DNA from: Candidatus Harrisonbacteria bacterium
Lineage (GTDB): Bacteria; Patescibacteriota; Minisyncoccia; UBA6257; UBA11618
Reading direction: 5' to 3'
DNA length: 64,000 bases
NCBI GenBank assembly: GCA_016867415.1
Contig: VGJO01000001.1
Coordinates: 148,312 to 212,311, forward strand
The notes below the pieces were generated by a model. The model had not been told where the DNA came from and searched no databases. It saw nothing but the letters and a program-made list of their open reading frames with translations. Below are positions 4,443-64,000 of this stretch, in pieces; the first letter of the stretch is position 1; each line of letters starts with the position of its first letter. The position numbers were made by a program, and so were the translations under genes.

Positions 4443-4575
4443 AAGTTTAATAAATCTACCACGCCCCCAAAACAAATCCTATATATACATTCATATTGAT
4501 AATTTTTTCTCAAATATTACAAAGTTCACAAGACGTTTTCAGTTCCGCGAAATAATTTTGCTTTTTCTCGCCTCC

Positions 4576-5136: not shown

Positions 5137-5177
5137 TAAGAAAATAATATCAATTCAATAACGAAAAGGATAATCTG

Positions 5178-5250
5178 GGTGCCTGACGGGAATCGAACCC
5201 GCATCACCGGAACCACAACCCGGGGCTTTACCACTAAGCTACAGGCACCA
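5178..5250 (-). tRNA. tRNA-His (anticodon GTG) with encoded G-1
   Basis: Reverse complement folds as cloverleaf: G-1 + acceptor GTGCCTG/CAGGCAC, anticodon loop TTGTGGT, T-loop GGTTCGATTCC, discriminator C; no encoded CCA. Confidence 0.8.
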
Positions 5251-5360
5251 TCATTCTTCTCAAAAAAATTGCAAAAAAAGATTCTTGAGAAACCTTATAA
5301 TAACACATATATCACTTTTTTCAAGTTTTTCTCCGCTTCTTTTTGTGAGAAAATACTTGG

Positions 5361-5999
5361 GTGCAGGCTCTTCTTGAATCCATAAAATTTTTCATCATTG
5401 ATCATGGCCCTTTGGCCATTTTTTTAATAGGTCTTATAGAAGAGCTGGTTTTTTTTATCCCCTCTTCGCCCATCTTTATCACTGCTGGCTTCTTTCTCAC
5501 TGATCCGCAAAGTAGTTTTACTGACGTCTTTCTGCAAGTGTTTTTTAATTTTGGCATCCTCGGCGCCTCTGGTCTCACTCTAGGATCCTACTTTATCTAT
5601 TATATCTTCTATTATGGCGGCAAACCCTTCATTCTTCGTTTTGGTAAATACGTTGGCGTGTCTTGGCAGGGGATTGAGCGTTTTGAAGAAAAAATGAAAG
5701 ATACGTATATCGATGAGTGGACTATTTTTTCTTTGCGGGCCATTCCCATTCTACCCATCACCTTTGTTTCTGTTTTTGCTGGTCTTATCCGGATTCACCC
5801 GCGAGAATTCGGCCTCTTCACTTTCTTAGGTGCGGTAGTAAGACTCACTATTTTAGGTCTTATCGGCTGGGCTTTTGGTGAGGCATACTCCACTTTCATA
5901 AAAGACATTCTTGAGGTAGAAAGATATGGCTCTATCCTGGTTATTCTCATAGTTCTCGCTTGTCTCTACTACCTTCTTAAAAAACGCAAATCTTTTTAA
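5361..5999 (+). CDS. DedA/VTT-family membrane protein (GTG start)
   Basis: 212 aa; 'GLIEELVFFIPSSPIFITAGFF' resembles the DedA re-entrant loop motif; multiple TM segments. Confidence 0.5.
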   Translation: MQALLESIKFFIIDHGPLAIFLIGLIEELVFFIPSSPIFITAGFFLTDPQSSFTDVFLQVFFNFGILGASGLTLGSYFIYYIFYYGGKPFILRFGKYVGVSWQGIERFEEKMKDTYIDEWTIFSLRAIPILPITFVSVFAGLIRIHPREFGLFTFLGAVVRLTILGLIGWAFGEAYSTFIKDILEVERYGSILVILIVLACLYYLLKKRKSF

Positions 6000-6002
6000 A
6001 AT

Positions 6003-7112
6003 ATGGCTGATTCAAAGCTCGAGAAAACCCTCAAAAAAATATCTTCAGAAAAAGAAAGTATTCTCCCTCTTTCCTCTAAAAAAGATATTGGTGCCAACCT
6101 TCTTCGTGATCTTATCGCTGACCGTCTTCACCATCTTTTTTCTCTTAAAAAGGATTGGTATGTAAATATTGATTCTGCTTCCGTTGAAGTTGCTTCTCTT
6201 GCCGCGCTTTCCTCTCTCATGGACTTTGGTGAGACCTTTCTCACTCTTTCTCTTGCCTCCGGCGGCTACCCGTTCTATAGTTCGCGCTTGAGTATAGTGA
6301 GCCGCGCCTATCGGCCTATCTCCTATAATGTCGATCCTTCTTCTGGTCTCATTGATTACGACGAAATCGCTCGGTTGATCGAGCTCCATGCTCCCAAGGT
6401 GATCATTTCTGGCGGCCTCACCTATCCTCGCATTATTGATTTTGAAAAAATCAGTAAGCTTGCCCATCGCGCCTCCGCTTTTCACCTTGCTGATATTTCT
6501 TCCATTGCCCCGCTCATTCTCGCCGGCCTCTACCCCCCACCTTTCAAAAGTACCGATCTTGTCCTTCTTGATACCCAATCTCTAACCGGCATAAAAAGTG
6601 GTTGTCTTCTTTCAGGGGAAGAGCTTTCTGATCGTCTTGCTCGTGCTGTCACTCCTGGTATTGAAACTACTTTCGATGAGGATAAATATATTTCTCTAGC
6701 CGCCGCTTTTCCTATTGCCTCTTCGCAGGAAGCAAAAAAACGGACCAAACAATCGGTAAAAAATGCCTCTCTCCTTGCAAGTCAGCTGAAAAAAACCAGC
6801 TTCACTCTAATGACCGACGGTACCGACACTGATTGCCTTATTCTTGATCTTCGCCATCAAGGCCTCTCGGGGAAAGAGGGAAGAGATCTTTTGAAAGCTG
6901 CCGGCATCTTTGCTGCTCCAAATTTTCTTTTCTCTGATTCTGATATCACTTCCCCCTCAGGTCTTCTTCTGAATACCTCGCACCTTCCGCGAGGAATGAA
7001 AGAAAGTGAAATAAAAATTCTCGCCTCCATAATAAGTGAGCTTCTCTTTAAAACAAAAAAACCTTCCGAAAAAAAATCTGAAGTTCTCGCTCTCCTAAAG
7101 AAATCTCAATGA
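6003..7112 (+). CDS. serine hydroxymethyltransferase-like protein, N-terminally truncated and lacking the PLP-binding lysine (probable pseudoenzyme)
   Basis: Collinear with GlyA: 'LSLASGGYPFYS' vs MNLAHGGHLTHG; 'HAPKVIISGG' vs HKPKMIIGGF; 'LDTQSLTGIKSG' vs TTTHKTLAGPRG (K replaced by S); 'TDGTDTDCLILDL' vs SGGTDNHLFLVDL. Confidence 0.6.
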   Translation: MADSKLEKTLKKISSEKESILPLSSKKDIGANLLRDLIADRLHHLFSLKKDWYVNIDSASVEVASLAALSSLMDFGETFLTLSLASGGYPFYSSRLSIVSRAYRPISYNVDPSSGLIDYDEIARLIELHAPKVIISGGLTYPRIIDFEKISKLAHRASAFHLADISSIAPLILAGLYPPPFKSTDLVLLDTQSLTGIKSGCLLSGEELSDRLARAVTPGIETTFDEDKYISLAAAFPIASSQEAKKRTKQSVKNASLLASQLKKTSFTLMTDGTDTDCLILDLRHQGLSGKEGRDLLKAAGIFAAPNFLFSDSDITSPSGLLLNTSHLPRGMKESEIKILASIISELLFKTKKPSEKKSEVLALLKKSQ

Positions 7113-7156
7113 ATAAAATAAATGGTCACCTTATCGCCAAAATTGCGAGCGTGAGC

Positions 7157-8341
7157 TTACTCAGAGGCTTCTCCTGCACCCATCTCCGTCCTCTTAGCCG
7201 CTTCTTTAATTTCCTTCTCTATTCTCTTAAGTAATTCTGGTTGTTCTTTAAGACTGACTCGTACGTTGTCAAAACCCACTCCGAGTTTAGTGTCCGAGAA
7301 AGAGTAGCTCGCTCCCGATTTAGTCACTACTTTGTATGCTAGACCCGTATTTAAAACATCGGCCTCATAAGAAATTCCTTCTCCATACATAATATCAAAT
7401 TCTGCATTTTTGAAGGGTGGTGCCACTTTATTTTTAACCACCTTTGCCTTCACTCGGTTACCTATAATTGTTTCACCTTTTTTGATCTGGGCCATCCGGC
7501 GAATATCAATCCGGACAGAGGAATAAAATTTGAGTGCCCGGCCGCCCGGCGTGGTCTCTGGTGAGCCAAACATCACCCCAATCTTTTCTCTGAGTTGGTT
7601 GATGAAAATAATCAGCGTATTCGTCTTAGCTGAAATTGCGGTTAGTTTCCGCAAAGCTTGCGACATCATCCGAGCTTGAAGGCCGATAAACTGCTGGCCC
7701 ATCTCTCCTTCAATTTCTGCTTTCGGCGTAAGCGCCGCTACTGAGTCTACTACTACCACGTCAATAATCTCCGATTTCACTAAGCCTTCTAGGATCGAGA
7801 GTGCTTCTTCTCCATTATTAGGTTGGGAGATAATCAGGTCTTTTACCTTCACTCCTAATCGAGCTGCATAGTCCGGATCCATGGCGTGCTCCGCGTCAAT
7901 GAAGGCGCACCGACCGCCTTTTTGCTGTGATTGAGCAATGCAATTAAGAGCTAAAGTTGTCTTTCCTGAAGATTCCGGTCCGAAGACTTCGATGACTCGT
8001 CCTTTTGGCAAGCCGCCGACTCCAAGGGCTAAGTCGAGTGAAAAGGATCCTGTGGGGATTACATCAATATTTACTTTTCGAAGTTCTCCCATCCGCATCA
8101 CTGATCCTTCGCCAAATCGATCCTGTAAATCCTCAATGAGCTTCTGTACTTCGCTGTTTTTCTCCTTCTCCTTTTTCTGATCTGCTGTCTGTGATGAGCC
8201 TCGATCTGAGCGGGCGGCCTGCTCTTTCTCTCGCTTCGCCGCCGCCTTCATATCCTCCTTCTCTTTTTTCTCCTTGTCCATATTTTTATTTGATGGGATT
8301 TTGTAATTCAAAGTTATATCGAATTTTTTCCTCTTATTCAA
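7157..8341 (-). CDS. recA: recombinase RecA with ~55-75 aa lysine/glutamate-rich N-terminal extension
   Basis: 'GSVMRMG', Walker A '[12 protein letters not shown]', 'IDAEHA', L2 loop region; extension MNKRKK...KKEKEKNSE precedes canonical start region. Confidence 0.9.
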
Positions 8342-9256: not shown

Positions 9257-9375
9257 CCAAAGAACCCCTCCCTTCCCCTATAGTGACTATTCTGAGAAAA
9301 AAATCTTTTCCGAAGATAAAGGGAAAGTTCGCCGGAAACTTTCCTGTGTCACGGTAGGGAAAGAAGGGGTTCTGG
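9257..9375 (+). repeat. motif-A element copy A: 28-nt inverted repeats (ccaaagaacccctcccttcccctatagtgac / gtcacggtagggaaagaaggggttctgg) flanking nested hairpins
   Basis: direct reading; arms ~26/28 complementary; shares core with copies at 18239, 32894, 39471. Confidence 0.6.
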
Positions 9376-16886: not shown

Positions 16887-17015
16887 AATTAAGCTCTTTA
16901 AATTGAGAGACATTACGCGTTTATACATTTCTAATAAATTTGTGGATGTGGTCGATTGGAGAGGCAGCGGCTCCGTAAGCCGTGCATCGAAGTTTGATTC
17001 TTTGTATCTACTTTT

Positions 17016-17087
17016 GTCGGGATAGATCAGTGGTAGGGCATAGGATTAAAAATCCAAATGTCGGAGGTTCAATTCCTTCACCCGGCT
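17016..17087 (+). ncRNA. tRNA-like gene with 7-nt anticodon loop UUAAAAA (anticodon AAA); possible pseudo-tRNA or tRNA-like module of a longer ncRNA
   Basis: cloverleaf: acceptor GTCGGGA/ACCCGGC (one A.A mismatch), D-arm GATC-AGTGGTA-GGGC, T-arm GGAGG-TTCAATT-CCTTC; unusual A34 anticodon; lies 125 nt downstream of promoter and 195 nt upstream of a strong terminator. Confidence 0.35.
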
Positions 17088-17280
17088 CTCGGTCTGAAGT
17101 CGCAAGTTACTTTGCCATTTAGATCGAAATCTCTCTTTGTCTATCGTCTTGATTTCCTTATTAGTCTTATACAAGCCCTGCGCTTGAGACTTTCCGAAAG
17201 GATTCCTAAAGGAAATGATTGACAAACTCCAGTCAACATCGAGTTCATTCCCTCGTTACTGGATGAGAGATGTTTCCTCT

Positions 17281-17337: not shown

Positions 17338-17462
17338 GAAATTGTAGGATTTTTTGGATGAAGTTTTGTAGTTCTTTTCGAGTATGTACCGGAGCATTCA
17401 AGAATTTGAGTGTGTGAAGATTAAGCTCAGAAAAAACTACAAAAATTCGACAAAAAGATCAG
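17338..17462 (+). repeat. family-1 structured element copy (arms attttttggatgaagttttgtagttctttt / aaaaaactacaaaaattcgacaaaaagat, core ...cggagcattc...gtgtgtgaag...)
   Basis: arms ~26/30 complementary; ends 24 nt before rpe ATG. Confidence 0.6.
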
Positions 17463-17485
17463 ACTTAATTTGTTATAATTAATTA

Positions 17486-18133: not shown

Positions 18134-18238
18134 GCTTACAGGCCGCATGGATATAATCGCCTTTACGGGCCGCAGGTGACGTGAGAATTATGTGCTCATA
18201 ATTTTCAGTTAATCCTTTCCAAGGACATAATAAAAATT

Positions 18239-18282
18239 CGCAGGAATTTTTTATGTGTTATGGCAGGGTAAAGAAGGGGTTC
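18239..18282 (+). repeat. hybrid element: family-1 5' flank (cgcaggaatttttt) fused to motif-A 28-mer (tgtgttatggcagggtaaagaaggggttc)
   Basis: direct reading; ~95 nt upstream of transketolase N ATG. Confidence 0.5.
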
Positions 18283-28631: not shown

Positions 28632-28914
28632 TCCACTACTACTAGATAAACAAAGAAAAAGAAGAAACAGAATAATCAGTAGAAGAGAGATAAGGTCGGC
28701 TACACGAGCGAAAGAAGCCAAAAATACGAGCGAAGATAAATCCTTTCTTGTTGCCCCAAAAGGTTTTGTTTATCAAACAGAGGATAATCAAACAGTAAAG
28801 TAAGTGAACACATCAAACACTTCTTTATCAGTCCGGCATTGCCATTACAATGCTTGGATTTATCGTGTTATCGACTACTTGAGAAAAGAAAACAATAAAG
28901 TTTCTTTTCTTTTC

Positions 28915-30418
<1,504 letters not shown>

Positions 30419-30929: not shown

Positions 30930-31056
30930 GCATCTCGCATGCGCAGGATTTTTAAGAAGAGTTTGGTTTATCTTCACGAGTTTCGCACAGGGTATTCTCT
31001 AAAAGTCTGTGAGTACAGAATGCAGTAAAAAATAAAAATATTTCAAAAATACAAGC
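30930..31056 (+). repeat. family-1 element copy (flank gcatctcgcatgcgcaggattttt; core ...gtctgtgagtacagaatgcag; 3' caaaaatacaagc 8 nt before ATG)
   Basis: read directly. Confidence 0.6.
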
Positions 31057-31064
31057 TTTTCCTT

Positions 31065-31430
31065 ATGAAAAAAATACTTTTGGTAGAAGATGACCCTTTT
31101 CTCTCTCTTTTATTAAAAAATCGCCTTGCTAAAGAAAGCTATGAAGTCATGCACGCCCACGACGGCGAGGAGGCTCTTGAGCTTCTTGGTATGAATTCCT
31201 TTGATCTTATCCTCCTTGATATTATTCTCCCCAAGAAAAATGGTTTTGAAACGCTAGAAGCTATTCGACAGAGTCCTATCTTTAGTTCTGTCCGTGTTAT
31301 TATTCTCTCCAATCTTGGTCAGGAATCCGACCTCGCCCGTGGTAAGTCTTTGGGAATAATTGATTATTGGATTAAAACAGAAAATTCCATCGACACTCTC
31401 ATGGCAAAAATCCGAAATATTTTGCTCTAA
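31065..31430 (+). CDS. stand-alone response-regulator receiver domain (CheY-like), first gene of T4P locus
   Basis: 'ILLVEDDPFL', phospho-acceptor 'LILLDIILPKKNGFE', 'ILSNL', K-site 'YWIKT'. Confidence 0.85.
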   Translation: MKKILLVEDDPFLSLLLKNRLAKESYEVMHAHDGEEALELLGMNSFDLILLDIILPKKNGFETLEAIRQSPIFSSVRVIILSNLGQESDLARGKSLGIIDYWIKTENSIDTLMAKIRNILL

Positions 31431-31578: not shown

Positions 31579-32163
31579 ATGTCGACAAAAAAAACAGGCT
31601 TTACTCTGATTGAGCTCCTGATTGTGATCGCGATCATTGCCATCTTGGCCACTACGGCCGTCTTGGTCTTGAATCCTTCTGAAATCTTAAAGAAAGCCCG
31701 CGACACGCAAAGAATCGGGGATCTTGAGACCGTAGCGAGCGCGATTGCCTATAGCTTGGCCACTTTGAGTAAGACGCCCAGCTTCCAAGCTGGTTCCGGC
31801 TTTTCCTGCGCAAGCAACTGCGCTTCTTCCCTTACTGGCGTTTCCGCGAACTGCGGCGGCCGCAACACGCAGACGCCGGCTAAGAGCACCGTTGATCGCA
31901 GCGCTACTCCCCGAGCTATTGATGGTAATGGTTGGGTAGCCTTAAACTTCAGTGCGGTGACCAATAATCCGCTCTCTATTCTCCCGATGGACCCGTCGCC
32001 GGATAACGCCTTGACATTCTACGCGTATGCCTGCGATAATGACAAACAGAAGTACGAATTGAGTGCTGTCCTTGAGGCAACCGACAACGTGAGCCGAATG
32101 AAAAACGATGGCGGTGATAAAGATTCTGTCTACGAAGTCGGTTCCGGTATCAGTTCCCTCTAA
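31579..32163 (+). CDS. type IV pilin (major pilin candidate) with class III signal
   Basis: 'KKTGFTLIELLIVIAIIAILA' prepilin cleavage/N-methylation motif (G|FTLIE). Confidence 0.85.
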   Translation: MSTKKTGFTLIELLIVIAIIAILATTAVLVLNPSEILKKARDTQRIGDLETVASAIAYSLATLSKTPSFQAGSGFSCASNCASSLTGVSANCGGRNTQTPAKSTVDRSATPRAIDGNGWVALNFSAVTNNPLSILPMDPSPDNALTFYAYACDNDKQKYELSAVLEATDNVSRMKNDGGDKDSVYEVGSGISSL

Positions 32164-32832: not shown

Positions 32833-32893
32833 TCTCTAACTCAGAATCTATATAAACAAAAAGACCAGAGCGCAGCTCCGGCCTACCACAAAT

Positions 32894-32951
32894 AAAGAGA
32901 AAATCCACTGGAGATTTCCCCGTGTCACGGTGGGGAAAAGGAAGGGTTTTT
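32894..32951 (+). repeat. motif-A element copy B (hairpin aaaatcca-c-tggagattt then ccccgtgtcacggtggggaaaaggaagggttttt)
   Basis: ccgtg-t-cacgg perfect palindrome inside the conserved 28-mer; ~100 nt upstream of pilB. Confidence 0.55.
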
Positions 32952-33052: not shown

Positions 33053-34756
33053 ATGACTCTTGAAATTCCGGTTGAAAAACTAAAATCCATCCTAATTGAG
33101 GATGGTGTTCTTAAAGAAGCTGACTTTGATTCGGCAAAAAGAGATGCCAAGCGGATGAGTCAGTCTCTGAGTGATATTTTAATCTCCCGCAATCTCATTA
33201 CCGAAGATTACTACGAAAATCTCCTTTCTAATTTCTACGGCGTCCCTCGCATTAATCTCCTCGGTAACCCTTTAGATGAATCCCTGATCACACTTCTTCC
33301 CGAAAACATCGCTCGAGAAAAACGCGCCATTATCTTTGGTAAAAGCGATCGTGGTGAGTATCTTGTCGCCATGGAAGATCCAAGTGATCTTGAAACCATC
33401 GAATTTTTAAACCAGTTCCTCAAGGGAAAAATCATTCCCTATCTTTCCACTCGCGAGAGTCTCAACGTTGGCTTCTCCTACTATGTGAAGCGCTCCTCCG
33501 AATCTTTCCGCAAGATGATCGATGATAGCGTCCGCGCTTCCCTCCGTAAGAAGCTCGGCGATTCCAAAGAAGCCGCCGAGGAGCTTCCTGTCGTTGCTCT
33601 CGTCGACAATCTTATTGCCTATGCGATCAGCTCCCGCGCCTCTGATATTCATATTGAGATCCTTGAGGATTCTGTTCTTATCCGTTTCCGTGTTGATGGC
33701 GTCTTAAAAGAAATTATTCGCGTCCCCAAGGAAATTCACGCTGCGATTCTCGCTCGCCTGAAGCTTCTTGGTTCTTTGAAGCTTGACGAACATTCCCGCC
33801 CTCAAGATGGGCGTTTCCGCTACAAGCTCGTCGGCGAGCTTATGGATATCCGTCTTGCCATCATGCCCACTTTCTATGGTGAAAAAGCTGAAATGCGTCT
33901 CCTCGCGAGCACCGAGCGCCCACTTTCTCTAGAAGAGCTTGGTTTCTTTCCCGATCACGTCGCTATCATCAAAAAAACGATCAAAAAGACCTATGGTCTC
34001 ATTCTTATGACCGGTCCCACCGGCTCCGGTAAGACTACGACCATGTATTCGATCCTAAGTATGCTAAACAAGCCTGAGGTTAATATCGTCACCATCGAAG
34101 ATCCGGTTGAGTACGATATGAAATATATCAATCAGACGCAGATCAATCCAACCGCCGGCATCACCTTTGCCTCCGGCCTTCGTGAAATTGTTCGTCAGGA
34201 CCCAAACGTTATTATGGTCGGTGAAATCCGTGACGAGGAGACGGCTGATATCTGTGTCCAAGCAGCGCTCACCGGCCACCTTGTCTTATCTTCCTTACAC
34301 ACCAACGACGCTTCTACCGCCATTCCACGTTTCATTGATCTTAAAGTCGCCCCTTTCCTTCTCTCCGCCGTTATTAATCTTATCCAGGCCCAGCGTCTCG
34401 TCCGCCGCATCTGCCTTGAGTGCATCAGCTCTTATATTCCCGAAGAGAGTCTTCTCTCTTCGCTAAAAAATTATCTTTCACCCGATTCCCCTGTCCGTTT
34501 ACCCAGCTCCTTTTTTAAAGGAAAGGGCTGCCCTGCTTGCGGTGGCACTGGCTACAAAGGACGTATCGGTATCTTCGAGTTGCTTGATGTTTCTGATAAA
34601 GAACGCGAGGTTATCGTCTCACCTCATTTCACTCTTGATAGTCTCCGCGCCGAAGCAAGGAAGTCTGGTATGATCACCATGTTTGAAGATGGTCTTCGCA
34701 AAGTCGAGAAGGGGATTACCACTCCCGAAGAAGTCCTCCGCGTGATCCGAGAGTAA
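33053..34756 (+). CDS. pilB: type IV pilus assembly ATPase PilB (GspE family)
   Basis: Walker A 'MTGPTGSGKTTTM', Asp box, Walker B 'IMVGEIRDEET', His box 'LVLSSLHTNDA', tetracysteine 'CLEC...CPAC'. Confidence 0.9.
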   Translation: MTLEIPVEKLKSILIEDGVLKEADFDSAKRDAKRMSQSLSDILISRNLITEDYYENLLSNFYGVPRINLLGNPLDESLITLLPENIAREKRAIIFGKSDRGEYLVAMEDPSDLETIEFLNQFLKGKIIPYLSTRESLNVGFSYYVKRSSESFRKMIDDSVRASLRKKLGDSKEAAEELPVVALVDNLIAYAISSRASDIHIEILEDSVLIRFRVDGVLKEIIRVPKEIHAAILARLKLLGSLKLDEHSRPQDGRFRYKLVGELMDIRLAIMPTFYGEKAEMRLLASTERPLSLEELGFFPDHVAIIKKTIKKTYGLILMTGPTGSGKTTTMYSILSMLNKPEVNIVTIEDPVEYDMKYINQTQINPTAGITFASGLREIVRQDPNVIMVGEIRDEETADICVQAALTGHLVLSSLHTNDASTAIPRFIDLKVAPFLLSAVINLIQAQRLVRRICLECISSYIPEESLLSSLKNYLSPDSPVRLPSSFFKGKGCPACGGTGYKGRIGIFELLDVSDKEREVIVSPHFTLDSLRAEARKSGMITMFEDGLRKVEKGITTPEEVLRVIRE

Positions 34757-35967
34757 TGAAAAAATTCCGCTACACTGCCAATCGTTCTGATGGCCGCCTC
34801 ATGACCGGCGATATTGATGCCGCAAGCGCCGACCAGGTCCTCACCTATCTTCGTGGCCGCGATCTTCAGCCGCTCTCAATCAGCGAGCTTAGCACTTCGA
34901 TCCTCAAAAAAGATATTTCCTTTTTTAGCTCTATTTCCGAGATGGATAAGATTTTTCTTTGCCGCCATCTCTCCCTTATGCTCCGTCTCGGCACCGATCT
35001 TTTTCATGCGCTAGAAATCCTAATTGAAGACACTGATAATAAAGTTTTAAAGAGTATCCTTCTTGAGATTCAATCTTCTCTCGAGCGTGGTCAGCCTTTC
35101 TATCTTACTTTCGCGAATTATCCTCAACATTTTTCTCCTGTATTTGTAAATCTTATCGAGGCTGGTGAGGCCGCCGGAACCCTTGATGAATCCTTCGAAA
35201 ATCTTGCCGTCATACTCGCAAAGTCTGATGATCTGAGGAAAAAGATTCGTGGTGCCCTGATCTACCCCGCGATTCTCACCATTGGCTCCATCTCCGTCCT
35301 CTTCTTCCTTGTCTCTTTCGCTATCCCACGCATTGCCACTGTTTTTTCTGAAACCACCGCCGAGATCCCCTTTTTTTCTCGCATAGTCTTTGCAATCGGT
35401 AATTTTTTCTCCGCTTATCTCCTCATCATTCTTCTTTTTTTCATTGCTCTCGGCACCGGTCTTTTTTATTTCTTTTTAAAGACTCCTACTGGCCGTCTTT
35501 TCTTTCTCCATATCTTGAGCCGTATTCCCGTGATCAAAAAAGTCGTTCTCGAGATTGGTATAGAGCGCTTCTCCAGCACCTTGAGCTCGCTTCTTAAGGC
35601 GAATGTCCCGATTATCCGCTCCCTAGAGATCACCGCTAATTCCTCTGGTAATGAGGATATCAAAAATTCCGTCCTCCGGGTCGCCCACGAGGGCATCAAT
35701 AAAGGTCTCACCCTAGGTGAAGCCTTCAAGCGGGAAAAATCTTTTCCAAATACTGTCACGAGCCTCATCGTCATCTCCGAACGTGCCGGCCGTCTTGAAG
35801 AAGTCCTCCATTCCCTCTCCTCCTTTTATGAGTCCGAAATTGACGCCTCCTTGAAAGCCATGATCGCCTTCATTGAGCCCGTCCTTCTCGTTATTATTGG
35901 CGCCGTCGTCGCTCTTATCGCCCTCTCCGTCATCGTTCCAATCTACCAGCTCGTCGGCCAGTTCTGA
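34756..35967 (+). CDS. pilC: type IV pilus platform protein PilC (GspF family)
   Basis: two T2SSF repeats ('FLCRHLSLMLRLGTDLFHAL', 'FSSTLSSLLKANVPIIRSL'), three TM segments. Confidence 0.9.
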   Translation: MKKFRYTANRSDGRLMTGDIDAASADQVLTYLRGRDLQPLSISELSTSILKKDISFFSSISEMDKIFLCRHLSLMLRLGTDLFHALEILIEDTDNKVLKSILLEIQSSLERGQPFYLTFANYPQHFSPVFVNLIEAGEAAGTLDESFENLAVILAKSDDLRKKIRGALIYPAILTIGSISVLFFLVSFAIPRIATVFSETTAEIPFFSRIVFAIGNFFSAYLLIILLFFIALGTGLFYFFLKTPTGRLFFLHILSRIPVIKKVVLEIGIERFSSTLSSLLKANVPIIRSLEITANSSGNEDIKNSVLRVAHEGINKGLTLGEAFKREKSFPNTVTSLIVISERAGRLEEVLHSLSSFYESEIDASLKAMIAFIEPVLLVIIGAVVALIALSVIVPIYQLVGQF

Positions 35968-36025
35968 CGGTCTTTTTGCCTTAAGGTAAAAAGACCGTCA
36001 TCCTGAACTTAATTCAGGATCCAGG
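35966..36025 (+). repeat. 12-bp hairpin (gacggtcttttt/aaaaagaccgtc, overlaps pilC stop) followed by family-2 hairpin subtype B (gtcatcctgaac-ttaa-ttcaggatccagg)
   Basis: read directly. Confidence 0.6.
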
Positions 36026-36108
36026 CACCTGCCTTCTTAAGAAGACATTCTAAATCCCTATCTTTTTCTGTATTTTTCTAGTTAAAAATCCTTACCTCAC
36101 CTACTCAT

Positions 36109-36150
36109 TTGACACATCTATTGACAATATGATTATAAATATGCTATAAA
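36109..36150 (+). promoter_or_regulatory. sigma70-like promoter candidates (TTGACA-N17-ATTATA / TTGACA-N18-TATAAA) for the 36231 cassette
   Basis: tttgacacatctattgacaatatgattataaatatgctataaa read directly. Confidence 0.4.
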
Positions 36151-36230
36151 AAAAATGTTCCTTCCCAATTTTTATCCCTTCCCATTCCGGGCGCTGAGGC
36201 ATCAGCGAGACCTCTATAGGAGGACATGCC

Positions 36231-37103
36231 ATGAACGTAAACAAGACGATCCTTTTCAGAGATTCCGAAGATCGGCACGCGGGGGTGGTGATTGTAGCAG
36301 GTAGAGATCCCTTCGAAAGAAGCGATTCTTTTCAAAAGATTTGTCACATTCACGCGAAGGGTGATCGGCAATATGAAAAGGCTTTTCTTCTCAATCCCAA
36401 CGATACTGCTTTTGCGGCTCAACCCTTTTATGTCCGCAAGCCAGACGAAGAAGGAAAAGAAGTTGATTTTGCTCTTGCTGTTCTTAATGAACGATTGAGC
36501 GGCAAACCAGCAACTTCCGGTCTCGCCTTCGGTCGAAGTGGAAAACCAGACTATCCATCCCTCTTCCGCCCCCTTCCTACGAAGTATGTCATTATAGTCC
36601 CCCAGGGCTACACCTTCGAGTCATTCTGGATGACCTTCTGGGAAAAGTATGAAAACCACCCGAAGCGCTACTTCTATGAGAATCTCTCTACTGCGCAAAA
36701 CTTCTCGCAGTCCGTAGTGCTTCGCCCCGGCCAAAAGATCGAAGTGACCGTTTTTGAGCAAACAGTGGATCGACTAATGACCTCATCAGTGGAAAGAGTG
36801 AACTTTCTAAAATCCATCCCCGGCAACATCTTCACTGGTCTTTCCGGATCGGCCCTCATGTTTGATCAGCACTGGGAAAAACTCCCTAAAGGCCGAGCCT
36901 ACTGCTCTTTTGACGAGAAAGACCGCCTCCCTGCCCTCGAGTACTTCCACCGGGTGCCGTGCTTTGACTGCCACGCCGATGGGTACTTCCACTTCTTCCG
37001 CTTGGGCTTCGGGGGCAGCTGGGATTCGGACTGCCTGCTCCTGTCGTTCCGCGACTTATCTGCCGAAGCGACAGTGGAGGCAGAGAAGTCCTCGGATGCT
37101 TAG
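36231..37103 (+). CDS. hypothetical protein (290 aa) with canonical AGGAGG Shine-Dalgarno, own promoter and terminator; inserted between pilC and the minor pilins
   Basis: ataGGAGGacatgccATG; GC-richer codon usage; no signal peptide; terminator at 37148. Confidence 0.55.
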   Translation: MNVNKTILFRDSEDRHAGVVIVAGRDPFERSDSFQKICHIHAKGDRQYEKAFLLNPNDTAFAAQPFYVRKPDEEGKEVDFALAVLNERLSGKPATSGLAFGRSGKPDYPSLFRPLPTKYVIIVPQGYTFESFWMTFWEKYENHPKRYFYENLSTAQNFSQSVVLRPGQKIEVTVFEQTVDRLMTSSVERVNFLKSIPGNIFTGLSGSALMFDQHWEKLPKGRAYCSFDEKDRLPALEYFHRVPCFDCHADGYFHFFRLGFGGSWDSDCLLLSFRDLSAEATVEAEKSSDA

Positions 37104-37147
37104 GCACTTGTCTCCGATCAGTGCCTCAGATCCTTTGGTTCTTGATT

Positions 37148-37181
37148 CCCGTTTGTGTACACGCAAACGGGAATTTTTTTA
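37148..37181 (+). terminator. intrinsic terminator cccgtttg-tgtacacg-caaacggg + AATTTTTTTA
   Basis: 8-bp stem then T7. Confidence 0.75.
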
Positions 37182-37224
37182 TCTCTCTATTTTCTCTTCT
37201 TATGATAAACTTACTACAAGCACT

Positions 37225-37791
37225 ATGCCTCCTTTCTTTAAGAAAAACTTCGGCGTTACTTTGATTGAGCTTCTCATCGCTATGGGCGCCACGGTCATTA
37301 TTTCTACCTCCGCCTTCCTCTCCCTCTCTGGCATCCCCGGCCGCGAAGCCGTCGTTGACGCTACCCTAAAGCTTGCCGCCGATCTTCGCGATGTCCAATT
37401 CCGCTCAATTACCCAAGATGACGCCTCCTACTGGGGTGTCTACGTTGACTATGGCGGCGGCACCGCGCCTCTTTACAAACTCTACTCCTTGACCTCTCTT
37501 CCTGCTAATAGCTACAGAAATAAACCTACTGACCCCCCTCCTAATTCCACTTTAGAAAAATCTATTTCTCTCGATCCCAATCTTCGCTTCATCACCCCAG
37601 GCGCTACCAATAATCTCGTCCTTATCTTTGATCAATTAACCGGGCTTCCGGCTTCTTTCACTAATTTTAATTGTGGAAGCGTCGACGATGTCACTCCCCG
37701 CCCCATCCGGATTATCAATACCAATAATTACCAAGGTGAGGTCGATATTTACTGCTCCGGCCGCATCGACGTCACCTTCGCTCAACTATAA
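37225..37791 (+). CDS. type IV pilin-like protein (minor pilin/pseudopilin)
   Basis: 'MPPFFKKNFGVTLIELLIAMGATVII' class III signal; ATG at 37225 within the longer track ORF 36862..37791. Confidence 0.7.
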   Translation: MPPFFKKNFGVTLIELLIAMGATVIISTSAFLSLSGIPGREAVVDATLKLAADLRDVQFRSITQDDASYWGVYVDYGGGTAPLYKLYSLTSLPANSYRNKPTDPPPNSTLEKSISLDPNLRFITPGATNNLVLIFDQLTGLPASFTNFNCGSVDDVTPRPIRIINTNNYQGEVDIYCSGRIDVTFAQL

Positions 37792-38530: not shown

Positions 38531-39403
38531 ATGCTCAAAAATTTTTCTCTTATAATATTTATCTCCTCCCTTTTCCTCTTTACCGCTCTCGCCGCTCCCG
38601 GCGACATTAATCCTGTTCCCGGTGAATCTTTTCATTTCGGTTGGAACGATCTTTTTGGTTTCCTTGATTGGAAGCCTGGATCGACCAATATTGTCTCGGT
38701 AAAAAGCAATCATCTTGAAGGAAAGATTGTTACGAGTATCGGCGACATCTACCTTGATTGTGCGACTGCTAAAAATACGAGCTGTGCCTCTGCTGAAGAT
38801 TGGTCCGTGAAAAAAAATCTAGACAGCCTCTGCGAATATGGCTGGAATGATCTTATTGGTTGGATAAAGTTTGCCTCGAGTTGCAACCCGCTCGAAGCCA
38901 ATCATTGGGGCGTGAGTCTTATCCCCGCTGATTCCGGTACTAATCGATTCTTTGATGGTTTCGCTTGGAACGATGTTGTCGGCTGGATTAGTTTAAGTTC
39001 TGACAATGACCATGATACTGCCGCGGGCATCCAAACTTCCTCTAGCGTCTACAAGGTAAAAGTCGAAGGCACTGGTGTCACTTCCGTAAAAGCCAGTCTC
39101 GAGTCTAATATTTTCGACACCAATTTTCCCGCTCCCTCCTGGAACTATATCCTCTGGCAGGGGAGTCTCGCTGGGAGTGAACCTACCTCCGTCTCCTTTA
39201 TCCTCCTCTCCTCTGATTCCTCTGCCGGACCCTGGGATTTCTCCAGTCTCTCTGCCGTTACCTTAAGAGGCAATCCCGGCGAAAAAATATTCTTCCCTTC
39301 AGACTTCCCCAAGAAACGCTATCTCAAATACCAAGCTCTCCTAATGTCCTTAAACGGAATTTCTCCCATCATCGACGACTTCATTATTAATTGGAGTCCG
39401 TAG
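38531..39403 (+). CDS. secreted protein with three G(W/F)ND-x2-G(W/F)(I/L) repeats; T4P-associated (tip/adhesin candidate)
   Basis: signal peptide; 'FGWNDLFGFLDW', 'YGWNDLIGWIKF', 'FAWNDVVGWISL' repeats; several Cys. Confidence 0.5.
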   Translation: MLKNFSLIIFISSLFLFTALAAPGDINPVPGESFHFGWNDLFGFLDWKPGSTNIVSVKSNHLEGKIVTSIGDIYLDCATAKNTSCASAEDWSVKKNLDSLCEYGWNDLIGWIKFASSCNPLEANHWGVSLIPADSGTNRFFDGFAWNDVVGWISLSSDNDHDTAAGIQTSSSVYKVKVEGTGVTSVKASLESNIFDTNFPAPSWNYILWQGSLAGSEPTSVSFILLSSDSSAGPWDFSSLSAVTLRGNPGEKIFFPSDFPKKRYLKYQALLMSLNGISPIIDDFIINWSP

Positions 39404-39438: not shown

Positions 39439-39470
39439 AAAAGGCTGGAGCATCTCGTAGGCTTGCCAAT

Positions 39471-39534
39471 CCGAAGATAATGGGAAAGTCCTCTAAAGAC
39501 TTTCCTGTTTCACGGTAAGGAAGTGTTTTTTCTG
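39471..39534 (+). repeat. motif-A element copy C (ccgaagataatgggaaagtcc-tctaaa-ggactttcc tgtttcacggtaaggaagtgtttttt)
   Basis: perfect 9-bp hairpin ggaaagtcc/ggactttcc then conserved 28-mer; ~70 nt upstream of 39602. Confidence 0.55.
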
Positions 39535-40099: not shown

Positions 40100-41656
40100 A
40101 TGAGCCTCTCAAAACGAATCTGGAAAATAATGAGTTCCAATCCTTCTGTTAGCGGTTTAGAAGTCACTGATAATAGTCTTCGTTTTGTCCTTCTCAAAAA
40201 TGCCGCGATCTCTCTCTCTGCTTCAGTTAATCTTCCCCCAGGCATCGTAGAAGATGGTCTTGTCCGTGATCGACAGCAATTCATTGCCGCCCTCGCCACC
40301 CTCCGTAATCAGATCCCCAAAAAAAATATCATAAACATCATTCTCGTAATCCCCGCCACCCACGTCTACACCCAAGTCTTCTCCCTCCCGCTTCTCCCAG
40401 AAGACAAAATCGCCGAAGCGGCCCGCCTTAATCTCGAGACTATCTCGCCTATCAATAGCAAAAATGCTTTCTTTGACTGGCAGTATGCCGGAGATCCTGC
40501 TGGCAAGGATGGCAAGCTCGAGCTTATTGGCGCTTTTATCCAGCGCAACTATATAGATGAGCTTTCTTACTGCGTCGAGCAAGCTGGCTTTGTAATTGTT
40601 GCGATTGAGCCTCTTCCGCTCTCTCTCGCTCGTCTTATTAATTTTACCTACCCCACCGTCCTCGACTCGCCTCGCCTCGTCCTTCACCTTTCAAGCGCTG
40701 GTCTTGATTTCTTTATCCTTCGCTCTGGCGCTCTCTACTTCGAATATTATCTTTCTTTCCGTGAGATTCAGGAGCGTCTGGGCGTCTCCTTGATCAAGCT
40801 TGCTGATCTGAAAAAAATTGTTATCTTCGAAGTGAATCGTCTCCTTAATTTCTATATTGCTCGCGAGTCCCAAGCCATTGAGGAATTAGTAGTAAGCTCG
40901 GTGATCGACATTGGCGACCTCCTCTCTGATCTATCCGCTTCCTTCAAGCTAAAAATTACCCCGCTTCTTCTTTCTAATTATCCAGATCTTATAAGCATTT
41001 GGTACCCGGTCTTTGGAGCCGCCCTCCGTGGTGAAATCCCACGTTCGAAAGATACATTCATCTCTCTTGCGAGCGCCGGTACGGAAGAGCGCTTCAAAGA
41101 AGAGCGGGCTATGAGCTTTATTCGTTTCTGGCGTCTTATTACTCTTTCAATCATCTCTTCGCTTACCGTAGTTTCTCTCGTCCTCTATCTCTTTGGATTA
41201 AGGCAAGAAAAAGCTCTCACGGCAAAACTTGCCGCCACCCCCACCCTCTTTTCCTCAGCTGATTTCACCGCTCTTAGCGCCGCCGCCGATTCTTTCAACG
41301 CATTAATCGCAAAGGCCGAGATGGCAGAGAAAAATACCAATACCCCTTCCCGTTTTATAAACACTCTCTCTGGTCTTGCCTTAGGAATCGACATTCTCGG
41401 TCTCGATTTTGATCCTAATTCTGGAGATTTTTCCATTACTGGGGATAGTGATTCAGAAAAATTAGTGATTGACTTCAAAAATACCCTCCTAAAAGATTCT
41501 CGTTTTGATTCGATTATCCTCCCCGTCACCGCCATCCGTCTTGATTCCTCAGGGAGTGCCCGCTTCACTCTCCGTGGTCGTGTAAAATCTTCTGATTTTC
41601 CTCCTCTCTCCATCTTTCCTGCTAGCTCCACTTCTTCTGCTCCAACCCAGCCCTAA
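40100..41656 (+). CDS. PilM-PilN fusion protein (actin-like PilM domain, TM helix, PilN/PilO-like periplasmic domain)
   Basis: N-terminal ~330 aa PilM-like ('VSGLEVTDNSLRFVLLK', 'LIGAFIQRNYIDELSYCVEQAGFVIVAIEPLP'), TM 'FWRLITLSIISSLTVVSLVLYLF', C-terminal coiled/beta domain. Confidence 0.65.
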   Translation: MSLSKRIWKIMSSNPSVSGLEVTDNSLRFVLLKNAAISLSASVNLPPGIVEDGLVRDRQQFIAALATLRNQIPKKNIINIILVIPATHVYTQVFSLPLLPEDKIAEAARLNLETISPINSKNAFFDWQYAGDPAGKDGKLELIGAFIQRNYIDELSYCVEQAGFVIVAIEPLPLSLARLINFTYPTVLDSPRLVLHLSSAGLDFFILRSGALYFEYYLSFREIQERLGVSLIKLADLKKIVIFEVNRLLNFYIARESQAIEELVVSSVIDIGDLLSDLSASFKLKITPLLLSNYPDLISIWYPVFGAALRGEIPRSKDTFISLASAGTEERFKEERAMSFIRFWRLITLSIISSLTVVSLVLYLFGLRQEKALTAKLAATPTLFSSADFTALSAAADSFNALIAKAEMAEKNTNTPSRFINTLSGLALGIDILGLDFDPNSGDFSITGDSDSEKLVIDFKNTLLKDSRFDSIILPVTAIRLDSSGSARFTLRGRVKSSDFPPLSIFPASSTSSAPTQP

Positions 41657-41954: not shown

Positions 41955-42108
41955 AATTTTCTCTTTTCCAGCCGATGAACGGCTTACATCGTTAAGTATT
42001 TCTGAATATAGCTTTCAGACAAGCATTCTTGATGAAAATTTCAACGTTCTCCCACAAACACTATAAGTACCCAATTTTTATATAATTATGTAAAAATTTT
42101 TATTAGTG

Positions 42109-42180
42109 TGCCGAGAGGGTGAATCGAACACCCGACGCCAGCCTCTTCAGGGCTGCGCTCTACCACTGAGCTACCTCGGC
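42109..42180 (-). tRNA. tRNA-Phe (anticodon GAA)
   Basis: reverse complement GCCGAGGTAGCTCAGTGGTAGAGCGCAGCCCTGAAGAGGCTGGCGTCGGGTGTTCGATTCACCCTCTCGGCA folds as cloverleaf; anticodon loop CTGAAGA. Confidence 0.85.
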
Positions 42181-45276: not shown

Positions 45277-45404
45277 ACATCGCCACGCGCAGGATTTTTC
45301 GAGGAAATTTTGATTTTCTTTGCGAGTACTGGACGGAGCATGCTGCGGAAAGCCTGTGAGTATGGAACGCAGCAAAAAATCGAAAGTTACCGAAAAAGAC
45401 AAGC
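45277..45404 (+). repeat. family-1 element copy (flank cgccacgcgcaggattttt; core gagtactggacggagcatgc...cctgtgagtatggaacgcag; 3' ccgaaaaagacaagc)
   Basis: read directly, 27 nt before HIT ATG. Confidence 0.6.
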
Positions 45405-45430
45405 TTTAAAAATTAAAAGTAAGGAACATT

Positions 45431-50417: not shown

Positions 50418-50630
50418 TGCAGCACAAGTGAAGTAATTTTGGATAAAGTTTGAAATTTATTTTTGAGAATGAGCCTCTACTACCAAAAGATAGTCATATT
50501 GAATGCAAAGTCTATAGAATCAGAAGTAAAGATCAGAAAGAGGAAAGATGAGCGCAAGGGAGTATATATAAAGAAGAGATTGTGAGTATGCAGTACAGAA
50601 AAAAATCCCAAAATCCAAAAAAATACGAGC
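50418..50630 (+). repeat. long (~213 nt) family-1 element copy (flank gcagcacaagtgaagtaattttgg; core ...gagtatatataaagaagagattgtgagtatgcagtacag; 3' ccaaaaaaatacgagc) located in the ftsA-ftsZ gap, not upstream of a + gene
   Basis: read directly. Confidence 0.55.
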
Positions 50631-50642
50631 ATTTAAAAAATA

Positions 50643-55852: not shown

Positions 55853-55988
55853 GTCGCGCTACCACAGCGAAATAATTTTGGAGGGTATTTCGATTTTCTT
55901 TGCGAGCAGCGAACGGAGCATACAAGAACTTTAGTATGTGAGTACGCAGCGGATCAAAAAAATTAAAATACCCTCCAAAAGTACGAGC
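55853..55988 (+). repeat. family-1 element copy (flank gtcgcgctaccacagcgaaataattttgg; arms ggagggtatttcgattttcttt / aaaaaaattaaaataccctcc; core gagcagcgaacggagcatac-aagaacttta-gtatgtgagtacgcagcgg; 3' ccaaaagtacgagc)
   Basis: arms end in perfect 11-bp ggagggtattt/aaataccctcc. Confidence 0.7.
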
Positions 55989-62143: not shown

Positions 62144-64000
62144 TTAATATCCCTTATCTTTTAATTCATTTAATCTCTCTTGTATTACTGCCTCTAGTCT
62201 TTCGGTAGTAGCTATTAGTAGATTTCTCGTCCCCGCCTTCACTGTCGTCGTAAGTTTCGGCGTAAACCCAATATTATTTTTATTAATGACATTCATTGCT
62301 TTATAGTATACCCGCTTGCTTCCCAAGGTTCCTGGTGTCCCTGAGATCTGCAAGAAGCAACTTTCCATATCCGAAAAAGCCTCCACCGTCAACATCGGTG
62401 GCACGACAATATCTTTCTTATTAGCTTTTTTGACCGCTATCTCAAGGCCGCTGTAAGCCCGCCCTAAAGAATATTTAGTCGTCGCCTCAATCATGCGGGT
62501 AATGGCGAGGATCACCAAGTCTTTATGTTTTTTTAATCTATCCTCCGCATCAAGCAGTAGAATAGCGCTCTCAATCGCTGCAATATTTTCCTTAATCACT
62601 TCACTCCCTCCCGCCGCCATAAGACATATCGGCATCAGCGAGTAATCTCGCAGTAACTCCTCTGGCTTCTTTTCTTTTTTTACTTTTTTCTTTGATGGGG
62701 GATTAAGAATAGAAAGTCCGGAATTATCAGTCGTTTCTTCTACGTTAAATAATCCTTTGAAATTATTTACCAAATTTTCAAAAAAAGTCGTTTCTTCTTC
62801 TGTCGGTTGCTTTTTATACTCTGGCAAATAATATTCTTCTTCATAATCAGTGACGTAGGTATTTTGCTTTGCTGAAATCTCCGGTATCACATCATACTTA
62901 GCTAATTTTTCCCCCCAGTCTTTAATTACTCGGAAGCAATAAGAGCTCTCCACTCGGAAAGCGGGCCCGGCTGTGAGAGAAAGATCAAATAACCCTCCTT
63001 CATTTGCATTTATATTGGTCCTATTGGAAAATTTTTCATTGCTTTCCAAATACTTTTGCTCAATAGTCTTTCCATGGTTGGGTACGACATCTTTTGGATC
63101 TTCGGTTGATATTCGGGCATAATCCCCATCATCCGGAAGGTTATTATAGTATTGAAAAAGTCCAGATTTATTCGTCACGTCATTATACGTTTCCCCAGCA
63201 CCTTCCGCATCGCAAGTACCCACTCGCTCCGCTGTCTGGAGTTTGAAGCGTTCTTGAGAAATAAGATCCTTGTCGCTTACATGAAGGATGAGGCGTAAGC
63301 GAAAATTAGCATTGCCCTCATGAAAGAAAGTGGTATCGAGCGGAGTTTTATCTGGCGCTATCGGTCTCCCCGCTTTAGTCGTCTTCGTCATTGAGAAAAA
63401 TCTATATCCTGAAAGCCTTATGCTCGGAATGATTACTCCGCTGCTACCTCCACCTCCGCTACTACCTCCGCTGCTACCTCCACCTCCGCTACTACCTCCG
63501 CTGCTACCTCCACCTCCGCTACTACCTCCGCTGCTACCTCCACCTCCGCTACTACCTCCGCCTCCGCTACTACCTCCGCTGCTACCTCCACCTCCTCCAC
63601 CTTCGTCACCACCTCCGCCTCCTCCACCTTCGTCTCCTCCACCACCCGAAGCCGCTTCTGTTATAAAATTCCATGTGTCAGCATCATTGATCCCTGAATA
63701 ATTATTATTAGAAAGATCTTGAAATGCCCCATTCGAAATATTGATGTGATAGTTATGAGAGTTAGAAAGATTCCCGATTGGATTAATAGTTACTGTATCT
63801 CCTGATATGGTTACTTCTGATGAGTTCACGTTGATTGTCGCCGCCGTTGAGTTATTTGTGTCGTCTATAATGCTAATAGATCCACTTCCTTTTTTAATAT
63901 TTTCTGAAAAGGTGATGACAAAGTCGCTCGCAATTGAGACATTTGTGCTGTTGTCTGCGGGGGATAAAGTGCTGATAGTTGGCCCCCCGCTTCCGATCAC
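62144..64000 (-). CDS. surface protein, C-terminal ~618 aa of a gene continuing past the window end: bacterial Ig-like (SbsA/Big_5-type) domain, Gly/Ser-rich linker, unknown C-terminal domain
   Basis: 'LSPADNSTNVSIASDFVITFSENI...VTINPIGNLSNSHNYHINISNGAFQDLSNNN' Ig-like pattern; linker encoded by tandem 30-nt repeats. Confidence 0.55.
   Translation of the reverse strand: MIGSGGPTISTLSPADNSTNVSIASDFVITFSENIKKGSGSISIIDDTNNSTAATINVNSSEVTISGDTVTINPIGNLSNSHNYHINISNGAFQDLSNNNYSGINDADTWNFITEAASGGGGDEGGGGGGGDEGGGGGGSSGGSSGGGGSSGGGGSSGGSSGGGGSSGGSSGGGGSSGGSSGGGGSSGVIIPSIRLSGYRFFSMTKTTKAGRPIAPDKTPLDTTFFHEGNANFRLRLILHVSDKDLISQERFKLQTAERVGTCDAEGAGETYNDVTNKSGLFQYYNNLPDDGDYARISTEDPKDVVPNHGKTIEQKYLESNEKFSNRTNINANEGGLFDLSLTAGPAFRVESSYCFRVIKDWGEKLAKYDVIPEISAKQNTYVTDYEEEYYLPEYKKQPTEEETTFFENLVNNFKGLFNVEETTDNSGLSILNPPSKKKVKKEKKPEELLRDYSLMPICLMAAGGSEVIKENIAAIESAILLLDAEDRLKKHKDLVILAITRMIEATTKYSLGRAYSGLEIAVKKANKKDIVVPPMLTVEAFSDMESCFLQISGTPGTLGSKRVYYKAMNVINKNNIGFTPKLTTTVKAGTRNLLIATTERLEAVIQERLNELKDKGY
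63433..63600. repeat. tandem ~30-nt DNA repeat (ccgctgctacctccacctccgctactacct, ~5 units) encoding GGGGSSGGSS linker
   Basis: periodicity read directly in sequence. Confidence 0.7.

Follow-up and report, generated by a model that had tools for sequence, protein, structure and literature searches.

Why does a gene with its own promoter, Shine-Dalgarno (SD)-like motif and terminator lie in the middle of a type IV pilus operon? The question is posed by a 64-kb stretch of Candidatus Harrisonbacteria DNA (GenBank assembly GCA_016867415.1, contig VGJO01000001.1, positions 148,312 to 212,311 of the forward strand), here called the window, in which an open reading frame (ORF) at positions 36231-37103 of the plus strand separates pilC from the first minor pilin gene. 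The window reaches 37 kb upstream and 27 kb downstream of the ORF, which encodes a protein of 290 amino acids (aa) identical to NCBI entry MBM3281292.1 (FJY91_00875), from a metagenome-assembled genome of this member of the Candidate Phyla Radiation (CPR, or Patescibacteria). A preliminary description, made from the sequence alone, had presented the gene as a recently acquired orphan and a candidate anti-phage or accessory module. We report that it belongs to a family of proteins targeted by the diversity-generating retroelements (DGRs) of CPR bacteria, and that it is probably a diverged, stand-alone and apparently frozen homologue of these variable proteins, inserted after pilC as an autonomous unit. 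The DGRs of the CPR make up a cellular clade, and their targets lack recognizable domains and are suspected to be new variants of the C-type lectin (Roux et al. 2021; Wu et al. 2018, PMC5758913).

A family of DGR target proteins and its predicted fold

Curated libraries were uninformative: the ORF protein had no match in Pfam, NCBIfam, PHROGs, PADLOC or the PDB sequences, whether searched as a single sequence or as a profile, and a word-indexed protein search returned only the protein itself. To this extent the label of orphan was apt. An exhaustive phmmer (HMMER) search of 1.84 billion representative sequences, however, recovered 305 homologues at E ≤ 1e-3, with 90 proteins at E values from 1e-24 to 1e-10. 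All 305 align to residues ~106-280 of the ORF protein, and their median length is 222 aa. Searching with a family profile gave 331 proteins, every one annotated as hypothetical and none with a Pfam domain; those with a named source are all from Patescibacteria. The nearest relatives are 39-45% identical to the ORF protein and have PGN and RLP features in common with it. The parts of the gene discussed below are as follows.

36231-37103, plus strand: ORF under study, between pilC and a minor pilin gene; diverged member of the CPR DGR variable-protein family
36231-36545, plus strand: N-terminal ~105 aa; lineage-specific, modeled with low confidence, with no transmembrane segment or signal peptide
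36546-37070, plus strand: C-terminal domain, aa ~106-280; common to the family, with a predicted C-type-lectin-like fold
36936-37058, plus strand: segment (LEYFHRVPCFDCHADGYFHFFRLGFGGSWDSDCLLLSFRDL) like a DGR variable region (VR); aligns with the family VR, depleted in A, with NNY codons at AAY template sites

The nature of the family became clear from its genomic loci, which were fetched from metagenomes with a six-sequence alignment and in which pairs of VR and template repeat (TR) were identified by blastn with per-base mismatch counts. In two loci (L012 and L013), bAvd and an RVT_1 reverse transcriptase (RT) come after the family gene, and the last ~122 nucleotides (nt) of that gene are repeated ~470-490 nt downstream at 83-86% identity. 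Of the mismatches between the repeats, 17 of 18 and 21 of 21, respectively, are at adenines of the template. Such a pattern is the hallmark of a DGR. Among 80 further metagenomic loci, at least 24 more contain VR/TR pairs with mismatches almost exclusively of the A type, beside RT and/or Avd. Adenine-specific mismatches in the VR/TR pairs of related loci, which had been set as the test of this assignment, were thus found. As judged from sequence, the family is a standard target of CPR DGRs, and the ORF is a member of it and not an orphan.

Within this family the ORF is the most diverged member seen. It retains 38 of the 59 positions that are at least 85% conserved, compared with 55.9 ± 2.2 (minimum, 50) in 113 homologues; it lacks the GAQG and CFC motifs of the family; and its score on a profile from which it was excluded is 139 bits, the lowest value seen, against a range of 194-267 bits among the other stand-alone copies. 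The comparison sets were picked with typical members, which exaggerates the contrast. No homologue of the N-terminal ~105 aa was found across the protein searches, the family loci or the pilus loci of relatives.

The ORF is intact, and its C-terminal domain is confidently folded in the structural model, although AlphaFold2 (AF2) run from the single sequence gave a pLDDT of only 31. The protein has no hydrophobic or transmembrane segment (maximum Kyte-Doolittle value over 19 residues, 0.86). Compared with known structures, the predicted domain has listed values of 7.0 for the C-terminal domain of Bd2740, 6.5 for LYVE-1, 6.3 for PvdO, 6.2 for both CD72 and PorK, 6.1 for the C-terminal domain of Lcl, 5.7 for TvpA, which is a DGR variable protein, and 5.6 for an FGE paralogue. 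A Foldseek search of the model against PDB and BFVD gave no significant match, and for this reason we regard with moderate confidence the assignment of the C-terminal domain to a C-type-lectin-type fold carrying the VR. Neither the protein nor the family profile matched the Pfam FGE-sulfatase and DUF1566 models. Judging from the model, the family very probably represents a new C-type-lectin variant. Remote homology searching and structure prediction replaced the preliminary view of a protein with no recognizable domain by a DGR-target family with a predicted lectin-like fold, a fold for which Foldseek offered no counterpart.

An adenine-mutagenesis imprint and the status of diversification

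The VR-like segment carries the marks expected of a DGR target. Its A content is 10.6%, compared with 26.4% in the rest of the ORF, and the family averages are 11.9% for VRs and 24.8% for TRs. At the eight sites where at least 60% of family templates have AAY, the ORF has the codons TGC, GAC, CAC, TTC, GGC, GGC, GAT and TGC, all eight of which are NNY and can be reached from AAY by changes of A only. By these marks the segment resembles the outcome of adenine mutagenesis and not a template.

The machinery that would have produced this imprint is absent from the window. Searching by tblastn with the RT and Avd of L012 and L013 revealed no homologue of either (best E, about 1; none below 0.9), and a repeat search and blastn-short found no TR matching the VR. 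A degenerate pattern that allows the same base or A at each template position also found no TR, and patterns of this type recover the TR in L012 and L013. The conserved 5' motif of the DGR RNA is likewise missing from the window, and neither tblastn nor the family profile detected a second family member there. A scan of the metagenome for a remote template with the same kind of pattern returned nothing, not even the VR itself, and so carries no weight.

We looked for ongoing diversification in five contigs from different sequencing runs, which are 99.95-100% identical to the window. No DGR-type variation was seen in the VR-like segment, a result of limited power given that these are consensus assemblies of a near-clonal population. 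The sole change in the segment is a synonymous C-to-T substitution at 36938 (in L005), and the only protein variant in the 90% cluster, S205P, lies outside the VR. In addition, the end of the VR has diverged from CFC to SFR at positions that are normally invariant and do not correspond to adenines. These observations are consistent with a VR that is no longer being rewritten.

A family gene that stands alone is not unusual, since more than half of the well-flanked copies lack a retroelement: of the 32 family loci flanked by 3 kb or more on each side, 18 contain no RT or Avd. In CPR DGRs, a TATAAT-like box just past the target-gene terminator is followed by the conserved motif TAGATAGNGCATGCGGYTAYGR (L012 7811-7832, L016 1481-1502, L038 6656-6677, L062 6661-6682 and L083 1342-1363), with near matches in many loci; presumably it forms the 5' end of the DGR RNA that contains the TR. 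Locus L062, where the motif stands without an RT or Avd within 6 kb, may be a decayed element.

An autonomous insert in the pilus operon

The pilus operon around the ORF was delimited by Pfam matches together with the gene tables of the window and of its relatives. It contains the following genes.

31065-31430: response regulator
31579-32163: pilin
Between pilin and PilB: gene of ~194 aa
33053-34756: PilB
34756-35967, plus strand: pilC (T2SSF; Pfam PF00482, E 9e-49), left neighbor of the insert
37225-37791, plus strand: first minor pilin, right neighbor, with a prepilin N_methyl motif (Pfam)
After the minor pilin: three small genes
40100-41656: PilM/N-like gene

We compared this operon with the loci of four relatives (L007-L010), which keep its gene order, including a 16S rRNA gene upstream and pth, hisS and HIT downstream. 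The minor pilin begins 0-4 nt after pilC in L007, L008 and L009, and in L010 pilC is followed by a gene for an fn3 protein. Alignment of pilC with the relatives holds to the stop codon and then diverges, and none of the four pilus loci contains a member of the DGR-target family. Positions 35968-37224 (1,257 nt) are therefore an insert relative to all relatives compared, which bears out the earlier proposal of a self-contained unit placed inside the operon. The nearest PilC homologues outside the species are only 50-55% identical, however, and relatives at this distance cannot date the insertion; a PilC-based scan of GTDB-representative contigs added only an unrelated Nitrospiria locus. Two ideas about neighboring sequences were rejected. 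The N-terminal 105 aa might have been the remnant of a gene formerly at this site, but they have no similarity to the relatives' loci. Another 290-aa gene (38531-39403) might have been a paralogue of the ORF, but it is conserved as part of the operon in the relatives.

The insert carries a complete set of expression signals, listed here in order.

35966-36020, plus strand: two strong hairpins, one of 15 bp and one of 8 bp, that lie at the left edge of the insert and overlap the stop codon of pilC
36109-36136, plus strand: sigma-70-like promoter 1, TTGACA (36109), N16, GATTAT (36136)
36121-36150, plus strand: sigma-70-like promoter 2, TTGACA (36121), N18, TATAAA (36150), with TGn upstream of the -10 element; overlaps promoter 1, read from the sequence
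36192-36207, plus strand: leader hairpin of 6 bp, CGCUGA-GGCA-UCAGCG
36218-36223, plus strand: AGGAGG, an SD-like hexamer 7 nt before the ATG
37128-37137, plus strand: AGATCCTTTG, a 3' untranslated region (UTR) motif just 5' of the terminator, conserved in the family
37144-37182, plus strand: intrinsic terminator with a 14-bp stem (37144-37175), a 4-nt loop and T7

Most of these signals had been recognized in the preliminary description, and the two promoter matches, the AGGAGG and the terminator stand as described. The terminator is the strongest within 12 kb (-29 kcal/mol; z, -5.2). The leader hairpin is present, but the leader taken whole folds no better than shuffled sequences (z, -0.8), and folding indicates that the AGGAGG can pair with CCUCU at 36211-36215. 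The hairpins at the left edge are very stable (-39.4 kcal/mol; z, -6.6) and have no downstream U-run; a terminator, an insertion scar and a recombination site are candidate roles for them.

The same layout is found across the family. Of 66 non-redundant family genes, 43 are preceded within 200 nt by a sigma-70 promoter that fits 10 or more of 12 positions, usually with an exact TTGACA at -35 and a -10 element ending 47-100 nt before the ATG, and 49 of the 66 have an SD-like motif, typically AAAGGAnAAAACG-ATG. Family 3' UTRs have in common a start of TAG TCCTTGG... or TAG GCACT..., the motif AGAYCCTTTG and a hairpin with a T-run; the last of these follows nearly all family genes. In the form AGAYYCYTTG, the motif occurs at the same place in 23 of 75 family 3' UTRs, including that of the window, and most of the others have near matches. 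The 3' UTR of the ORF opens with TAG GCACTT, a common start. Many family members also end in a short conserved protein tail after the CFCD strand (SSDA, SGT, LVA, LDT or LET; ...EKSSDA in the ORF), and this tail agrees with the conservation of the DNA on either side of the stop codon (TAG TCCTTGG or TAG GCACT).

Composition fits the same pattern. The ORF has a GC content of 0.509, compared with 0.465 ± 0.039 for genes of the window, and a GC content at third codon positions (GC3) of 0.57, compared with 0.48 ± 0.07 (z, about 1.2). This marginal excess, which is concentrated in the A-poor last 123 nt (62% GC), is what remains of the claim that its codons are GC-richer; in its choice of synonymous codons the ORF is an ordinary gene of the window (z, -0.59; rank 13 of 50 genes) and cannot be told apart from the host. 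Family genes are on average 7.7 GC points above their own loci. Because the family shares this layout, we consider the promoter, SD motif, terminator and GC excess to be family traits carried with the gene.

The SD motif stands out in this host. Of the 50 genes used for comparisons across the window, none but the ORF has AGGAGG, or a 5-mer of the SD, within 25 nt of its start. The resident 16S rRNA (28913-30418, minus strand) ends in ...GUAGAUCAUUUAAU and lacks CCUCC, in agreement with the earlier remark that the anti-SD is missing. The 16S rRNA genes beside the orthologous pilus operons of the four relatives (L007 3966-4014, L008 ~4153-4200, L009 ~2280-2330 and L010 3756-3804) end in GAUCA(A/C/U)UUAA or GAACAAUUAA, not GAUCACCUCCUUA, and also lack CCUCC, so the loss of the anti-SD is a trait of the clade and not an assembly artifact. 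Our literature search found no published description of anti-SD loss in CPR bacteria. AGGAGG occurs only 10 times on the plus strand of the window, from which we estimate a probability of ~0.04 that one copy would by chance be spaced like an SD from at least one of the 50 starts. Since the host clade lacks an anti-SD and genes of the window have A/T-rich upstream regions, the most natural reading of the perfect AGGAGG is that it was brought in from a donor lineage that uses SDs and would have no anti-SD partner in the present host. The expression signals are thus foreign in style here and match the family layout in other CPR genomes. If this reading is correct, imported DNA in a clade without a 16S rRNA anti-SD would be recognizable by a perfect AGGAGG.

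Taken as a test of horizontal acquisition, these results point in two directions: four relatives lack the ORF at this site and no other gene of the window has expression signals like its own, yet its codon usage is typical and the relatives are distant. Sequence comparison supports a self-contained, lineage-specific insert, and a horizontal origin of the cassette appears plausible. That the acquisition was recent, as the preliminary description suggested, is not borne out: the codon usage is host-like, the ORF is the most diverged family member seen, and no close relatives are available for dating.

Several further features were noted around these subjects. For most genes of the window, the sequence ahead of the start is A/T-rich and lacks an SD, and a TATAAT-like box often lies only ~10-25 nt from the start codon (for example, near the starts at 575, 1754, 17486, 23781, 24725 and 43742); boxes so near the starts suggest leaderless or very short-leader mRNAs. 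In the relatives, the 16S rRNA gene upstream of the pilus operon lies on the same strand as the operon and has group I intron matches (L008 1508-3901 and L009 389-2288), with an additional group II intron fragment in L008; the 16S rRNA gene of the window is intron-free and inverted. A 53-nt element with an internal hairpin (TCCGAAGATAAAGGGAAAGTTCGCCGGAAACTTTCCTGTGTCACGGTAGGGAA) is present in four copies (9309-9361, 18218-18270, 32885-32937 and 39470-39522), two of which are inside the pilus operon, upstream of pilB and before a 161-aa gene. A family of intergenic repeats of ~60-150 nt (GCGCAGGATTTTT...GAGTA..GAACGGAGCATAC...GTATGTGAGTACG..CGCAG.AAAAAA) lies upstream of several genes (1341-1462, 17405-17463, 27295-27415, 30939-31065, 45285-45412, 50581-50638 and 55865-55987), and one copy precedes the first gene of the pilus operon. 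Elsewhere in the window, 63406-63645 consists of tandem repeats with 12/18/30-nt periods, rich in CTCCGCTGCTACCTCC, within a minus-strand ORF (62144-64000). At 16942-17088, Rfam reports two adjacent tRNAs with low scores (35.9 and 39.7 bits), and ARAGORN reports only one, a tRNA-Phe with the unusual anticodon AAA; a normal tRNA-Phe(GAA) is located at 42108-42180.

Alternative explanations and known systems

The explanation that we favor as probable would run as follows. In the family, the VR is rewritten by an adjacent cassette of Avd, RT and TR through adenine-specific mutagenic retrohoming. The ORF would have arrived as the autonomous unit of the family, consisting of a sigma-70 promoter, a leader of ~75 nt, an SD, the ORF, a 3'-UTR motif and a terminator, and this cassette would have landed right after the pilC stop codon, splitting an operon that is uninterrupted there in relatives. 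Residues ~106-280 would form a C-type-lectin-like ligand-binding domain whose last ~40 codons are a former, possibly dormant, VR. The protein would now most likely be either a soluble binding protein of fixed specificity or a slowly decaying relic.

The ORF might instead be an active remote target, its VR still rewritten from a distant TR and its apparent invariance reflecting low activity or consensus assembly. The intact VR-like segment, 3'-UTR motif and hairpin would fit this idea, as would DGRs' capacity to work in trans on targets at a distance (Wu et al. 2018, PMC5758913), and some of the many family loci that lack an adjacent RT could be such targets. We nevertheless consider it unlikely, given that no TR, RT, Avd or DGR-RNA motif accompanies the ORF in the window, that the five assemblies show no DGR-type change and that the VR end has diverged at invariant non-adenine positions. 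Another reading takes the position of the gene as a clue to function: a DGR-born lectin-like protein would have been captured in the type IV pilus operon of a CPR epibiont as a pilus-linked factor for host or ligand recognition, for instance an adhesin or receptor-binding accessory, and could be either a domesticated fixed binder or a remote DGR target. Such a capture would join type IV pili to binding proteins diversified by DGRs, both of which are believed to mediate the attachment of CPR bacteria. Its appeal lies in the location, in the predicted ligand-binding fold and in one other family gene (L050) directly after a PilB-PilC-pilin-like cluster. With its own promoter and strong terminator, however, the gene is not designed for co-transcription; all four relatives lack it in this operon; and the protein has no prepilin N_methyl motif, signal peptide or transmembrane segment. 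Moreover, family genes and DGRs occur in unrelated housekeeping contexts, between rpsB/tsf and prfA (L094), between ftsZ and ftsA (L095) and near murG and murC (L011), and one pilus-adjacent case among the 32 well-flanked loci is close to chance by our own estimate from the ratio of operon to genome size, so we do not read the pilus location as functional. A role at the pilus thus strikes us as distinctly improbable. The L095 locus holds a complete DGR of target plus RT (2824-7926) on another Patescibacteria contig, from which it follows that such cassettes land inside conserved housekeeping clusters.

Least probable of all, to the point that we give it very little credence, is the anti-phage role raised in the preliminary description, or that of any other horizontally acquired conflict module. 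An accessory, lineage-specific and self-contained cassette is what such a module would look like, and DGR-diversified proteins have been proposed as antigen sensors in some multicellular bacteria (PMC10907252). Against this, the ORF had no PADLOC match (0 families at E ≤ 1) and no PHROG match, it is a single small gene with no effector or NTPase domain, and a scan of viral contigs with the family profile gave no match.

In our preferred account, then, an apparent ORFan with odd expression signals becomes interpretable as a stand-alone copy of a CPR DGR target module, a fairly ordinary accessory gene for this group. Current views are not overturned, as the abundance of DGR targets in CPR genomes is already known. 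What the locus adds is an unannotated, Pfam-less family with hundreds of members, a candidate for the new C-type-lectin variant that Roux et al. anticipated for CPR targets, and evidence that the target gene may travel as a conserved unit of promoter, leader, SD, 3'-UTR motif and terminator.

Among known systems, the C-type-lectin DGR proteins of known structure are Mtd of Bordetella phage BPP-1, TvpA of Treponema denticola and the archaeal and Thermus variable proteins. The ORF protein has no detectable sequence similarity to these, its domain is smaller, and the likeness to them comes from a model and not from a structure. Remote DGR targets, such as the seven additional targets of the DGR in Treponema (Wu et al. 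2018), resemble the ORF in that the VR gene lies away from the RT; they differ in having a matching TR with A-to-N differences in the genome, whereas the ORF has none within the 64 kb. The closest counterparts are the CPR DGR targets (DGR clade 2 of Roux et al. 2021). From these the ORF differs in its lack of an adjacent Avd, TR or RT, in a VR that is invariant in the data and in its unique N-terminal extension, which adds ~60 aa. The family probably corresponds to one of the ungrouped or UVR classes of VR of Wu et al. 2018. The likeness to CPR targets is nonetheless extensive: homology is significant over ~170 aa, the ORF protein is small and soluble with no transmembrane segment or Pfam domain, as published for those targets, and its VR-like segment has the same placement at the extreme C terminus and the same frame, HRVP...LG.F...W...LLCFCD, as the VR of the family.
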